A stretch of DNA of 63,983 nucleotides, the filler included, from Diploschistes diacapsis (Eukaryota), in the NCBI GenBank assembly GCA_023645945.1. It is 12 parts of 12 records of this genome, joined end to end, with 100 filler letters (N's around TTAATTAATTAA, not from the genome) between each part and the next. Parts side by side here need not be neighbours in the genome. Positions count along the whole stretch, not along the records: positions 43,068 to 48,337 come from JALAIB010001581.1; 11 more parts are not named here. One strand, written 5' to 3'. This document shows, piece after piece, positions 4,258 to 48,337 of this stretch. A program made the position numbers and the translations under genes. Position 1 is the first letter of the stretch; each line of letters begins with the position of its first letter. A model generated the notes under the pieces. The model worked only from the letters and a program-made list of their open reading frames with translations. It was not told where the DNA came from and did no database searches.

Positions 4258-5004
4258 TTTGAAATCTGAGATTCTTTAGCTACTGTCTATTGTGTGCGCA
4301 GCTGTTAAGTGATAACGTTATAGTGTATGATGAGAAAATCCTGTGATCCTACCAGATCGAGGAATCAAAGATTCTGAGTATCAGGTGCTGCAATATCTGA
4401 ACAGGGCGGGAGATGACCCTAAATAGGCAATAATGACTAGTGGAATAACTGCTGAATACAATAATAATGCTTTATTATTGTCGGAGGTAATGAATAAAGA
4501 TGAAGATAGAGGGATAGAGATGAAGATTAAAGCTGTAAATGGTGGGAGGTGAAAGATCTTTTATAAATACTTTCCCTGATCATGTAACAGCGGGGGTAGT
4601 GCCTAATAAGTAGCAACTATCCCACTGAGCTAAAAGACTGACACAATGCTTTCAGGAACCCCGAAGCACTGTTTCCTTATTATACTATATGTAGGTGCGT
4701 GGCTGTGGCAGCAGGGGGACCTGAACCCCAGTGCGCACACTGCGGGCGTTATAGATCATTATTAGTGATCAATATTACCTAGTAATCTTTATTAATGTTA
4801 AATCTTCTAATCCAACATTATTCAACCCACAATCCAGCATAAATATTGGATTCATGGTTTAAATATTATTGGATCATTAATTTAATAATTTAAAGATCCT
4901 TTTTAATAGCCCCTAGTTATTAAAATAATCGATTATTAATAATAGGACGTTAAACTGTTGTCAATAATATGTTAAATAATTGTTAATAACGCGTCTTCAT
5001 CACG

Positions 5005-42967: not shown

Positions 42968-43783
42968 NNNNNNNNNNNNNNNNNNNNNNNNNNNNNNNNN
43001 NNNNNNNNNNNTTAATTAATTAANNNNNNNNNNNNNNNNNNNNNNNNNNNNNNNNNNNNNNNNNNNNCAACATGTTAAATCGTGCAGATGTAAAAGATGC
43101 AGGGTCAAGCCCTGGATTAGGGCAGCGATTGCTGAGGTATCTAGTTGATTTGGTTTACCAATGCCGGGGGTTGCGGGGGGGGGGGGAGGGCGTTCGCCCC
43201 GTCGTGGAGACGAGTATAGCCGCTTGGTTTCCGCGTGGTGGTAAAGCAAGACAGGAATTAAGTTACGGGGCAAATCAATGAATCAGCAAATCGGTATAGG
43301 AAGCGCCCTTTCACGGAAAAAACCCTGCAGAAGGAATAGATGGTGAATGCCGCCGAGATGGATACCAAATGCCTCTCCGGGACTCCTGTATAAATTGGAA
43401 ACCAGGCTCTAATGCAATTTTGACAGCTTTTGCTTTTAGTATGATGTTCTTGGCTCACCACTATCTGGTCGGGATCTATCTGTTGTCTCTTGGTTTAAAT
43501 ACGAGACTGCTTAATCGATTACAAGGATCTGATAGCTCTATTGGCTACTGCCACTCAGCTAAAGACGAATCAGTCCTCTCCATAAGTGACATCGGGTTGA
43601 GATATCACAGATGAATATCGTGCCAGTCTAGCAGATCTTGATGCAGATGCTTTGGGCGCAAATGGGAATTCTTTTGCAGATACACTAACAGAACATCCAC
43701 AAGTAAAATCCTATGTTGGCACTTGGGCGAAGGGTTCGACCACAGAGTATTTGCATGTATAAACTCATATTGGCCAATATTAC

Positions 43784-45124
43784 TCACGTACTATTGATGG
43801 CTCCATCCTCTTCCAATCTCTTGAGCTGCTTCGCGTCTCGGGACAAAAAACAAGCGTTGATAAGGCTGATGAGCCCCGAAAATGCCACAGGAATAGCTAT
43901 TGGGTTTATAACCGCGATACCGGCTGCCGTAGCTGTAGCACCCAGTGCGCCGGCAATTTGGAGGATCTTGTCCCGTTTCGCTCTCTTCTTCTCCAGCAAT
44001 TGCTGCGGAGTCATTGCTAGAGGCAATTGGGTATTGATACTGGGTTTGGTGGTAGCTTCGGGTTCAATCTCTATTACTGGCTCTTCCTGTGTCTGGTCGG
44101 GATCTACCTAGAGTCAGTCAGTATCCCTAATTGAAAAGAACGAGAGAGGGTAATGGAACCAAACCTTATCTTCTCTCGTTAAAGCGAGAAACCTCATGTC
44201 AAAATCCATTCCTTGCTGACGAAGCTGTTCTCGATTCTTAGCCTGCAATTTATCGATCTGCATGACATATGTCCGCTTCGCCTCCTCAACCCTTTTGGCT
44301 TGCGTGGTCTTTACTTCTTGCAATTCATCGTCTCGGGCTTTGAAGGCTGCATCAACATCAGTCTTCAGTTTCTCAATCTTCGCTTCGTAGATGGCAATTG
44401 TCTTTGTGAGTTCGCGCTTCAAGGCTTCGCCTGCAGTGGTGTCGATCAGATCAAGTTTCTGATCCACCATCTCCCTCTGAATCTTGAGCGTAATTTTCTC
44501 TTCATTATGAAGCAGAGACTCAACAATCGCAAAGGCTGACTCTTGCGTGTCATGAAATTGGGTCATTGTCGCATTCTTGATGAGCATGTCTCCCCAGTAT
44601 TCAGGAGTGCTTCGGAGCTCTTCCTCGTGTTCCCTCGCACGCTCTTCGTTTGTCATCACTTCCCAGAAGGTCGTGGCAAGCACGACCTTTTTCATTGGTT
44701 CATCACCACAGAGTGCTCTGAAAAGTCCGAGATTGGCGAGTCCTTCATGGCCTAGGCGCGGATCCGTTATGCGATGTAGGTAGATAATACCGCTCAACCT
44801 GATGTTCTTTTGGTACGTGCCCACAAGGAACTGCGCAATTCCTTGTAGAACATCGGTGTCCGTCCTATACGTGTCGTCAAAGCCAGGGGTATCAAGAATC
44901 GCCATTTGCCTGTCACCGTAACTGAATTCGAATAGATGTGGCTCCTGCGTACAGGCCTTGAGAGAATGGCCCACAACGACATCTGGGTTTCCGGTAAGCT
45001 TCTGGACAAATGTGCTTTTTCCGGAGCCTGTAGTGCCCATAACGGCGAATACGGTAAAATCATTTGTGCTTGGCAACTCCAGAGTTTTGACGTTATGCAC
45101 TCCTAAGGACTGGCTGCCGGCCAT
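43784..45124 (-). CDS. AIG1/GIMAP-like P-loop GTPase with a coiled coil and a C-terminal hydrophobic hairpin
   Basis: G1 GTTGSGKS, G2 GHSLKACT, G3 DTPGFDDT, GIIYLHRITD and G4-like TTFWE. An intron at 44108-44164 (GTTTGG..CTGAC..TAG) joins it in frame to ORF 43784-44026. Confidence 0.85.
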
Positions 45125-45516
45125 CTTGGACTCTGATGCCGTCTAGAAATATAGTAGACACGGACTAAGCGTATAGATACTGATTTCTAAAGACCACCCG
45201 TGGCGATGAAGCATGGCATTTCCCTTATCTCTTCGACAAAAGCTCGCTACCCAGCATCGATCGATCGCCGGCCGAGTCTCACACCACCGACATAAGGGCA
45301 GCCTTGTGGCTGATTGCTTAGAGATTCCGCGTAAGAAATCCATAGCATGTGTCAATCCAGAAGCCATTAAGCCTCAGAGGCTGCGCTCTTTTCTTTGCGA
45401 AGCGGGGAAGAGGCAGTTAGTTAGTAAGGCATTATTGAAATAACTTAGAAGGATGCAAGGCTAAACCACGCTAGTTCGAAAACAACTTAAGGCTAACTTA
45501 GTTATTCCACCGACAT

Positions 45517-46050
45517 TAGAGAGGTTTAGCAACCCTGTCGCTGCGACTGCGAGTTTGCTATTGTAGTTAGCTCATGTCTCGGCGCCGAGCGCTGCTTACT
45601 TCTTTGGGAAGTATGTCCGAAAGTTCTCGCAGCGTCCGCTTACAGAACCGCAGACGTCGCATACGCTGCGAGATTCTTAATGTAGATAAGCGTCCAGAAA
45701 AGCCTTACGGCCCTTCACCGACGCATCCGCAGTTAAATACTGGTATTTCCGTATTCTTTTACCCTTTCTTTTTCTTTACTCTTCTTAACGCCTCGCGTTT
45801 TGTTTTTAAGTATAATAAAAAAATAAACATAATAAAGACCCTACGGCTCTTTAAAACAAGCCTCTGAAAACGTAAAATGGCTATATTTTAGGCCTTTGAA
45901 CTATATTCAAAAGAGATGAAATTAGTAAGAGCATTGTCATTTTGATATATTTCTTAATTTGGATTAGTTTATTGCCAAGGTCCTAAAAAAGCGCTAGTTA
46001 CATCTGGATTCTCGCAGCGAGCGTATTGACAGGGTTGCTAAACCTCTCTA
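45517..46050. mobile_element. MITE-like element with perfect 23-bp terminal inverted repeats
   Basis: TAGAGAGGTTTAGCAACCCTGTC (45517-45539) and GACAGGGTTGCTAAACCTCTCTA (46028-46050) enclose a partly AT-rich interior with no credible gene. Confidence 0.85.
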
Positions 46051-46107
46051 TTCGACCCGAAAAAGTTCCTCCAAAAGGCCACGCTCATTGCAACGTCTAA
46101 GCTGCTT

Positions 46108-47792
46108 TTACTTCTGCTCGCTTTCTCCTAAAAGCACAATAGCTTTGAGCCATACCTTCCGTCTGGCATGCTCGCTATCTATCTCCGTATTAGAAGCTAA
46201 GATTGACGGCTGAACGACCATCTCCACCAGTGAAGCTTGTTCTGCATCACACTCTTCATCGAAGTGCTGGCTTGGGTGTATCTCAACCTCGTCGCTTATC
46301 GATTGAAAGGTCTTCAGATAATACGAGCTAGACGGACACTCGATCCATACCCTATGTTTCCAAAGACGAGAGCTTAGTTCTCCGGCATCCCGCATGATGT
46401 CTTGCAGTTCGATTTCACAACGTGGCAATCCATAGTTCACTAAAGCTCGATGCTTACTCATGAAATTGCTAGTCAAGAATCGATAATAGTTCGCCCTCCT
46501 CTGTGTCGCTTCCTCAGAAAGCCTGGATTGGTAATTGGTATCGTTATCCGCCGGACTGAACAGCTGCAAGGTCAGAGACCGCCAGGCGTGTGCGATGGAA
46601 GGATCTCCTAGACGCATCATTAGCAATGGTCTGCAGGTGTAGATTTGCAATTCTGCCACACCATGCCGATATGCTCGTTCGTATGCCGACCGAAAAGTAT
46701 TGAACTCGTCTATAAAGCCGGGTAGTAATGGCTCGTTAGAGTTATAGCTACCAGGTAAAGGGAAAAAGGGCTGCTGGAAAATCCATCCAGTCACGAATCT
46801 GGCCAATGCTGCATTTAGCATGATTGAAGGCGCTTTTATTATGGCTTGTGTAATTTGAGACCTTTCCGGTACGTCGAGTTTCGCAAGCAGGTCTATCGCG
46901 CTGGATTGTGGAATAATCTGCTGGACAGCATATTTTTTGGCCCACGATTTCCAGTGGCTGGCTAGAGATTGAAGTGCTCCTCGGATCCTTCCGTCGTCTT
47001 CGGTATTCATGAAGCCTTTCCTGTCCATTACTTCTGCCTGCAGGTCCTGCATAGCGCGAATGTCCTTGGTTTGCTTATCGAGTGCCGACTGAAGTCTCTC
47101 GTTCTCGGCAGCCAGGTCTGCGATTTCCAACTCTAATTTCTCCCTTACTTTCTCCATCCGTCTAATACCTACTTTGTACTCTTTCCTCGCCTTTTCCCTT
47201 TCATTCTCTGGACGTACCAGAGACCACGATTCAGGCTCCCTAAGCTTCTGGAGTTCTTTCTCTAGTCTTTCCAGGGGATAAGTCCCTTCCCTCTTGGCCT
47301 TAGAGTCGCGCCTTTCAGCCGAAATCAGCGACATCGGATCTGTATTGATACGAGTAGGCTTATGGGGGACGAAAACTTCACGATCAGAATTTCTGTGTCT
47401 CTCGGTGTTATTTGAGGCCGCTCTATCAGATCTACTACGCTCTCGTCGTTCCTCGCGGCTATTCCGTCGAGATTGGCTATTCCGTCGAGATGGTACCTAC
47501 CAATGTTAATGAATTCCTAGACTTAACCCGCCTTGTCTGCACGTACCGTCTCCCAGCCGTTGTGCACATAGGTGTTATTCCTGCTACTACGAGAGGATCT
47601 TCTTTTCTCGGAGTGCACGACTTGATGAGTATCATTGGGAATTTTGGAAGAGGCGGATCCTTCCGGTTTTTCCTGCTCCACATGATCAGATCCGGAATCT
47701 GAATCGAACAAAGACTGTGGGTTCACATCCTCAGTGATGGGGTCTTGACGCAGGCGAGAATCGGGTTCAAATCGAACACGATTGTCGGCCAT
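46108..47792 (-). CDS. Uncharacterised coiled-coil protein with a possible GrpE/MIEAP-like C-terminus
   Basis: Exon 1 (47547-47792) splices in frame via intron 47497-47546, and a further 54-nt in-frame intron is probable at ~46608-46661. Disordered N-terminus, heptad region, DDGRIRGALQSLASHWKSWAK and C-terminal VEMVVQPSIL...KVWLKAIVLL. Confidence 0.75.
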
Positions 47793-48188
47793 AGCGATCT
47801 GAGCCGTGAGCGTTGCAAAAGGGTTAATATTAATGGCTGATTCAATTGATGAGCTAGGCGACACAGCTTTGATCGACAGACTTGGTGGTGGTTTTGCTGC
47901 CCGAGCAGTCACTTGGACGGCAGTCTACCCTCTCAGAGCCAGTATACGACATATATCGTTTCTAACTACGCTATGAATGGCACCATTACCCTTTTAAACC
48001 GATGCTCACCGTCTCTCGAGTGCGAAGCAAGGCTGTGGCTTTGACGCTCGCAAGGCTTTCAGAAGAGCGGGGTTGCGAGGCTGCGCAATGAAAAGGTGCC
48101 TAGAGCACTGAGTCTGGCAGCCTTGCGCTGATGAATCCATGCATAATTAGATTAAGGAAACCTCGTGAGAAGTATTTTCCAGCGAGTT

Positions 48189-48337
48189 ACATCCCAATAG
48201 TGTCAGATTATTAACCTAAATGGGTTAGTCTATCTGACTAGTTAACACTAGTAGGACCCTGAAGGTTCTTTAACCCTTCAGGACACGCCATTAACAACTG
48301 TTGAACATCCTACTAACTATAGTCAAACATCCTACTA
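48189..48337. repeat. Dispersed repeat shared with contig 1 (490-625)
   Basis: CTAGTAGGACCCTGAAGGTTCTTTAACC is the reverse complement of the sequence at 541-568. Confidence 0.8.

Follow-up and report, generated by a model that had tools for sequence, protein, structure and literature searches.

Adjacent genes for a GIMAP-like GTPase and a coiled-coil protein in Diploschistes diacapsis, possible members of a three-gene module with an HSPA12-type Hsp70

The window analysed here, a stretch of 63,983 nucleotides from the genome assembly of Diploschistes diacapsis (GCA_023645945.1; G000, 29 Mb in 4361 contigs), consists of twelve contigs of about 5.3 kb chained by N linkers. One of them, C648 (window positions 43068–48337, 5270 nt), is the home of two genes, gene A for a GTPase and gene B for a coiled-coil protein, hereafter the partner. 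Both are intact, spliced and co-oriented on the minus strand, and a miniature inverted-repeat transposable element (MITE) lies between them (Table 1). The initial annotation had reported two co-oriented genes, a MITE and a dispersed repeat on a contig devoid of housekeeping and Hsp70 genes, and the reading of genes, repeats and open reading frames (ORFs) agreed with it: neither an Hsp70 nor a housekeeping ORF was found among those of C648. It had also proposed a two-gene module with a membrane-anchored GTPase. The hydrophobic tail is indeed predicted; the unit appears to be a trio, not a pair, with an atypical Hsp70 gene as its third member.

Genes A and B on contig C648

Table 1. Features of contig C648, in window coordinates.
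Feature	Position	Strand	Remarks
Gene A exon 1	44165..45124	-	TRAFAC-class GTPase domain, then charged helical region; G1 at residue 30, G3 at residue 78
Gene A intron	44108..44164	-	57 nt, GT..AG, phase 0; predicted from sequence; homologs break at the same position
Gene A exon 2	43784..44107	-	Hydrophobic tail (about 43838–43966), predicted membrane hairpin (hydropathy)
Gene B exon 1	47547..47792	-	Start codon putative
Gene B intron	47497..47546	-	50 nt, GT..AG, phase 0; predicted from sequence
Gene B exon 2	46108..47496	-	Coiled coil, helical domain, C-terminal beta domain; unnamed fungal family
Gene B long helix	47020..47208	-	Predicted coiled-coil stalk; model residues 13–75, predicted local distance difference test (pLDDT) 87–98
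Gene B C-terminal beta domain	46129..46350	-	GrpE/MIEAP-like tail; model residues 299–372
Tandem repeat, 18 nt	47457..47491	-	In the N-terminal low-complexity region of gene B; X2 and X3 lack one unit
MITE	45517..46050	none	Perfect inverted ends of 23 nt that take in the flanking TA; missing from runs X2 and X4
Gene B upstream region	47793..48195	none	Putative portion of a shared divergent promoter
Target-site duplication AATAG, left copy	48196..48200	+	5 nt; right copy at G000:C4317:1369-1373
Long terminal repeat (LTR), start	48201..48337	+	First 137 nt (full 466 nt at C4317:903-1368); C648 breaks off inside

Contigs from four runs (X1 to X4) were aligned onto the C648 stretch. Those of X1 were letter-identical to it over two long pieces; this run is a possible source sample and was not counted as support. 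In X2 (about 98% alike), a single contig covers 44824–45495, with the 5' portion of gene A, and 46050–47210, with the 3' portion of gene B; the MITE is missing from it, and X4 has the same empty site. Because the X2 contig bridges both genes without the MITE and the X4 site is likewise empty, the adjacency of genes A and B is no assembly artefact and predates the MITE, an element with 53 matches in the assembly.

The product of gene A has 427 amino acids and one stop. In Pfam it matched MMR_HSR1 above the cut-off (43.4 bits) and Dynamin_N, RsgA, AIG1, FeoB and Septin below theirs. It is not a full dynamin-like protein (PF00350), as Dynamin_N scored 19.7 bits against a cut-off of 27 and the LeoBC match covered only residues 19–82. 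The AIG1 motifs G1 GxxxxGKS, G2 xTx and G3 DxPG, as given together with RxxxFNN in the part of PMC7053062 consulted, are present at residues 30, 57 and 78. The box after G3 has a hydrophobic strand with near-invariant R118, D121 and R123 and leaves the published consensus unmatched. The IAN motif RxxxFNN was sought in the protein and no FNN was found; a QFHDT/RFHDT stretch may be its counterpart. G4 reads TFWE. As judged from hydropathy and charge, a coiled coil precedes a C-terminal hydrophobic anchor, with a hydrophobic stretch at about residues 368–410 (Kyte–Doolittle 19-mer up to 2.11). Tail and intron position recur in homologs, for example P0005 of Endocarpon pusillum, and the tail is conserved in P0005, P0006, P0009, P0013, P0021 and P0022; it was seen in 21 of 102 GTPase homologs, many of which are cut at the intron.

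Relatives of gene A with E ≤ 1e-10 numbered 426 among 2601 candidates. The named ones in the 120 listed were all fungal, and the closest named relative among the matches listed was from Endocarpon pusillum (60%). Searches of the assembly with gene A itself, with a distant relative and with PF04548 each matched only gene A, counts that are lower bounds. A tree was built from 160 G domains, leaving aside 11 duplicates and sequences that lacked 140 residues around G3; the window GTPase fell within a 21-tip clade with Endocarpon (support 1.0). The profile of the 81-member family matched GIMAP4 (3lxx, E 3e-8), GIMAP7 (3zjc, E 2e-7), septins, GBPs and Toc34 over the G1–G3 region, and Der, which scored equally well. 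With GIMAP/IAN/AIG1 (PF04548) and the Toc34/septin relatives gene A shares G1, G3, an arginine after the hydrophobic strand, a helical extension and the hydrophobic tail. On these sequence features the protein is GIMAP-like, although not a filed AIG1 member.

Thirteen coding differences between X2 and gene A were listed (40 of 331 rows), six synonymous and seven non-synonymous, too few to read selection. At 43966–44077, in the GTPase linker and tail, all four listed differences change the residue and those of the G domain are mostly silent; the numbers are tiny. The GTPase scan of prokaryote genomes gave 12 loci, 11 of them partial, and the only full-length relative (L122) lies on a 2.6-kb contig of a Ktedonobacterales metagenome-assembled genome, where fungal carry-over is possible. 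No GTPase relatives were found in the viral contigs scanned.

The product of gene B has 544 amino acids and no hydrophobic segment. The V-x-P...KVxxKAxV pattern, which the initial annotation had likened to GrpE and MIEAP tails, is present and forms the conserved end of a large family, with 171 representatives at E ≤ 0.001. The Atlas cluster scoring 0.95 to gene B comprises 4377 proteins, mostly ascomycete hypotheticals, and a profile search for named partner homologs gave two proteins. The structural model, based on 111 sequences, was confident (pLDDT 85.7, predicted template modelling score 0.80) and shows the helix 13–75, a helical domain, two helices and five short strands, an order of elements that fits GrpE (long helix, helical bundle, C-terminal beta wing). 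In a wide structural search, 49 of the 50 listed rows stayed within the coiled coil and some 45 further residues at most; the sole row reaching the C-terminal domain was human GrpEL1 (9bls_B; 155 of 161 residues, model residues 38–378). In a profile comparison with 13 GrpE sequences, the C-terminal domain has F, H, V, V and A-x-V in register by eye. The nearest named Atlas families of the tail were GIL1/IRKI-C (0.83) and MIEAP (0.80). The Foldseek check advised by the initial annotation, run with the whole model, gave nothing at E ≤ 0.001, and the top 1000 were uninformative; a PDB sequence search with the partner profile returned only coiled coils, and gene B itself had no Pfam match to GrpE (PF01025). 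The likeness of the modelled protein to GrpE is weak and no more than suggestive. The assembly also has an ordinary Mge1, on C1500, distinct from gene B.

Linkage with HSPA12-type Hsp70 genes

A metagenome contig scan with the GTPase alignment kept 74 loci, amounting to 563,450 bases. One of them, L015, was retrieved by its GTPase only and holds the three families side by side: an Hsp70 gene (minus strand) faces the GTPase gene, which is followed by a partner gene (plus strand), and the trio sits between NPL4/Vps3844-type and RFC genes. The partner match survived leave-one-out (E 7e-11), and L016 is a short twin of this locus. The linkage of A and B claimed from the window thus extends beyond this assembly, to the X2 bridging contig and L015. 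Compared with the window, L015 matches at 33% in the GTPase and 25–35% in pieces of the Hsp70, its gene order differs, and the two partners gave no direct blastp match; in tree distance from the window GTPase, that of L015 comes 149th of 160. Because the proteins are so distant, L015 represents no recent shared synteny, and with its different gene order the trio is either ancient, with frequent losses, or has come together more than once. The L015 partner also has 18-nt (six-residue) tandem repeats in its N-terminal low-complexity part (L015:11004-11183).

With the L015 Hsp70 as query, five Hsp70 genes were found in the assembly, and a second search gave the same five; 10–20 kb were read around each. 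We take these genes to be of the HSPA12 type from their motifs, not from comparison with animal HSPA12 sequences. The gene on C4317, a contig selected via its Hsp70 before any flank comparison, occupies G000:C4317:1427-3960 (+) in 11 exons (one with a GC donor) and codes for 600 amino acids without internal stop. Its open frame carries the Hsp70 ATPase motifs (phosphate-1, EPEA, DCGGGT and GGFS), and it is 27–35% identical to paralogs that pass or match PF00012.

This contig is likely to continue C648 across the LTR. The dispersed repeat at the end of C648 is the first 137 nt of that LTR (40 scored matches), and the LTR of C4317 is 100% identical to it. The right end of the C4317 copy was set by other copies, and the next five letters, AATAG, equal the five before the window LTR; the family makes 5-nt duplications, perfect in the solo copy L164. 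As a control, flanks were collected from 49 loci of the 40 + 40 scored matches, 26 distinct ones on the left and 31 on the right: AATAG was seen once per side, and no other right flank begins so. Ten of the 26 left flanks found a counterpart on the right, where 3.0 would be expected, and none of 20,000 shuffles reached 10. The C4317 LTR ends 58 nt from the gene, of which 53 nt separate the duplication from the Hsp70 start codon; without the LTR, the start codons of gene B and Hsp70 would lie 461 nt apart, head-to-head. The GC contents of the two contigs are 0.47 (C648) and 0.46 (C4317). Contig 15 of X2 departs from the window at 48189 and continues for about 1045 letters at single-copy depth, which, judged from length and depth, would suit an LTR-free allele.

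A coincidental join, with a locus devoid of Hsp70, is very unlikely. It would agree with the 902 nt left of the C4317 LTR, which are AT-rich, retroelement-like DNA and not C648, with the gap, which no read spans, and with the flank control, where chance alone would account for about three of the ten matches between contigs. Identity, duplication, GC and head-to-head geometry, however, all fit the join, and of the LTRs assembled with both flanks most lack a duplication, which points to crossed flanks or nested elements. Given the retroelement-like 902 nt, either flanks were crossed during assembly or the gap contains further repeat DNA. Target-site duplications of the family link flanks on other contigs as well (L093-L112, L146-L174) and could serve to scaffold the assembly, and some LTR ends show the CA-to-TA change typical of repeat-induced point mutation.

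A second partner–Hsp70 pair was found on C2313, where a paralog of gene B faces an HSPA12-type gene (leave-one-out E 2e-16) and no GTPase occurs within the 11.5 kb read. The atypical Hsp70 that the initial annotation expected as third component is thus likely adjacent to gene B (C4317), adjacent in L015 and opposite a partner paralog on C2313. The C2313 paralog (L082:7136-8461) has a strong membrane helix (hydropathy 2.9) behind a Ser/Thr-rich stretch; none of the 87 other long partner homologs reached a hydropathy of 2.0. As predicted from the ORF before exon joining, it may be a receptor-like variant. The Hsp70 genes on C180 and C4127 had no partner within the stretches read. On C3335 a coiled-coil ORF (L087:772-1952) facing an atypical Hsp70 looked partner-like by eye, failed leave-one-out (E 84) and was dropped. 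A prokaryote scan with the Hsp70 alignment gave 16 pattern matches and no relatives, a weak test for bacterial pairs.

The tightest link is that between partner and Hsp70, not that between partner and GTPase. Genes A and B lie next to each other in the same orientation in the window, X2 and L015, and they might form a module of two proteins, the partner binding the GTPase without Hsp70. This is quite improbable, since all three confirmed partner genes share a locus with an HSPA12-type Hsp70 (one via the inferred join) and only two do so with a GTPase. An unlikely, although less remote, alternative is that Hsp70 and partner make up the working unit, the GTPase being a neighbour in the same insertion-prone, fast-evolving spots that does not act with them. 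The C2313 pair would fit this, as would the 14 of 15 long-flank GTPase loci without a partner, the large tree distance between the window and L015 GTPases and their differing gene orders. Against it, the only AIG1-type GTPase match of the assembly adjoins a partner; in the 563 kb of GTPase loci, the sole partner match and the sole Hsp70 matches (L015, L016) directly flank one GTPase amid housekeeping genes; and both trio GTPases have the hydrophobic tail found in 21 of the 102 homologs.

Proposed mechanism and comparison with known systems

In the best joint explanation, to which, roles included, we give slightly less than an even chance, genes A and B belong to a module of three genes that the HSPA12-type Hsp70 completes. 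Gene B and the Hsp70 gene would stand head-to-head across the LTR insertion, and protein B would be this Hsp70's own GrpE-like nucleotide-exchange factor: a coiled-coil dimer whose beta domain would open the nucleotide cleft as GrpE does, reloading ATP. GIMAP/Toc-type GTPases dimerise on membranes in a GTP-dependent manner. Protein A may do the same through its tail, setting the place or timing of the pair; the scheme presumes that A is tied, physically or functionally, to the B–Hsp70 pair. Taken separately, a role of the partner as cofactor of the Hsp70 is probable, and by analogy its action as a GrpE-like exchange factor is about evenly balanced.

Several results weigh against this reading. 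The AIG1 score of gene A (PF04548; 18.6 bits, E 0.0013) lies below the gathering score of 27, so that the earlier label GIMAP/AIG1-like stands as a likeness and fails as a membership. The GrpEL1 row (Z score 6.2, root-mean-square deviation 11.8) is tied with coiled-coil rows and below the noise level of about 8; hhalign against the 13 GrpE sequences gave a probability of 0.4% and a score of 14.3, with shuffle maxima of 17.8 and 18.0; GrpE, MIEAP and GIL1 were absent among the Pfam families listed for 111 and 44 family members; and Atlas scores below 0.9 are leads only. The GrpE/MIEAP likeness of the initial annotation is thus weakly supported. Among the 31 right flanks, AATAG would occur by chance with p=0.16, although for one contig named beforehand the value is about 0.005 (flank-composition null), and an LTR so close to the Hsp70 start may disturb expression. 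A confirmed partner accompanies two of the five HSPA12-type genes of the assembly (one via the inferred join), a failed candidate one and none the other two. The partner stands beside the GTPase in 1 of 74 loci or, among loci with 2.5 kb or more free on each side, in 1 of 15; GTPase genes occupy both strands in 24 of the 74 (among L009-L073); and the close clade has no representative among the 74 (best segments 27–54% vs 51–74%). Of the homologue linkage that the initial annotation had asked for, this set has one instance with all three families, L015, and the trio is not a GTPase-family-wide trait. GTPases of the gene A family are often paired head-to-head or arrayed in tandem, with up to about eight genes per array.

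The known systems closest to the proposed module are DnaK–GrpE, mortalin–GrpEL1 and Mge1 (PF00012 + PF01025; PDB 9BLS), which likewise combine an Hsp70 ATPase with a partner of a long helix, short helices and a C-terminal beta domain. They differ in that gene B has about 150 extra helical residues and no significant sequence or profile match to GrpE, the Hsp70 is HSPA12-type, a GTPase is added and no J-protein was seen in the loci examined here. According to the part of PMC11685456 consulted, the beta wing of the GrpEL1 dimer opens the nucleotide cleft of mortalin. Bacterial GAP1-N2 GTPase systems, as described in the consulted part of PMC7159879, also link TRAFAC GTPases, some with membrane helices, to HSP70 and GrpE, 14% of them carrying both. 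They are bacterial and have GAP1, FNIII and DnaJ parts unseen here, and the likeness is one of gene classes. No GAP1, FNIII-repeat or zinc-ribbon GTPase parts were seen in the ORFs of C648, C4317 and L015, where no GAP1 profile was run. HSPA12A/B are divergent Hsp70 proteins with ATPase motifs, like the C4317 product. MIEAP/SPATA18 (PF16026) and the plant GIL1/IRKI C-terminal domain (PF24994) are, at the level of leads, the nearest named clusters by language-model features.

Purpose of the module and further observations

The purpose of the proposed module may be defence. This is the likeliest purpose, at somewhat less than even odds, and is suggested by analogy with bacterial conflict systems and by the fast-evolving, paralog-rich families. 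The trio might instead be real and serve quality control of organelles or membranes, as MIEAP does, which appears improbable. Such a role would suit the presence of MIEAP among the nearest named families, the single GTPase of this kind in the assembly, which has no array, and the Podospora non-self study, in whose consulted part MMR_HSR1 appears only as a broad class (PMC4835503). It accords poorly with two paralog-rich, highly divergent families, with the GTPase, HSP70 and GrpE genes combined in bacterial conflict systems, and with a large Sordariales orthogroup carrying the same weak Pfam labels as the gene A family, which the survey of nucleotide-binding leucine-rich repeat (NLR) proteins (10.1101/2024.11.26.625400), in the part consulted, met and set aside. 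The survey's orthogroup OG0000027 may have a bearing on what the GTPase family is. A link to Neurospora doc-1/doc-2 gained no support in the one search made for it.

The literature search, mostly without subscription papers, found no description of a GTPase–partner–Hsp70 module in the titles and opening lines of abstracts listed; what is likely new here is a variant, probably of three genes, of the Hsp70–GrpE(–GTPase) theme. The large fungal GTPase family of gene A had no function assigned in the literature consulted. In its widest form, which we consider unlikely as a whole, the proposal would be an undescribed machine of filamentous fungi, made of an HSPA12-type Hsp70, a dedicated GrpE-derived non-mitochondrial exchange factor and a GIMAP-like GTPase anchored by its tail. 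This machine would be what eukaryotes have in place of the bacterial GTPase–HSP70–GrpE conflict systems, with MIEAP and GIL1/IRKI as animal and plant versions of the cofactor. If true, it would point to a partner of human HSPA12. Nucleotide exchange in the eukaryotic cytosol is the task of Hsp110, BAG and HspBP1 factors, so a factor of the GrpE type elsewhere than in mitochondria and plastids would come as a surprise. A 2026 review (PMC13580251) describes HspA12 as a protein of unknown function and reports HSPA12 expanded in bivalves, with no cofactor or gene partner mentioned in the part consulted; a neighbour gene shaped like GrpE would be a direct way into that function.

The locus itself provides natural variants, with the MITE missing in two other runs and the LTR 53 nt ahead of the Hsp70 start. 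Next to gene A, the stretch 43450–43910 is covered by contigs of X2, X3 and X4 and was examined for ORFs; none was convincing, and six of the nine listed X2 differences at 43640–43734 share one codon phase. Degenerate copies of the LTR at the end of C648 occur in the first contig of the window, at 336–614 and 4419–4995.

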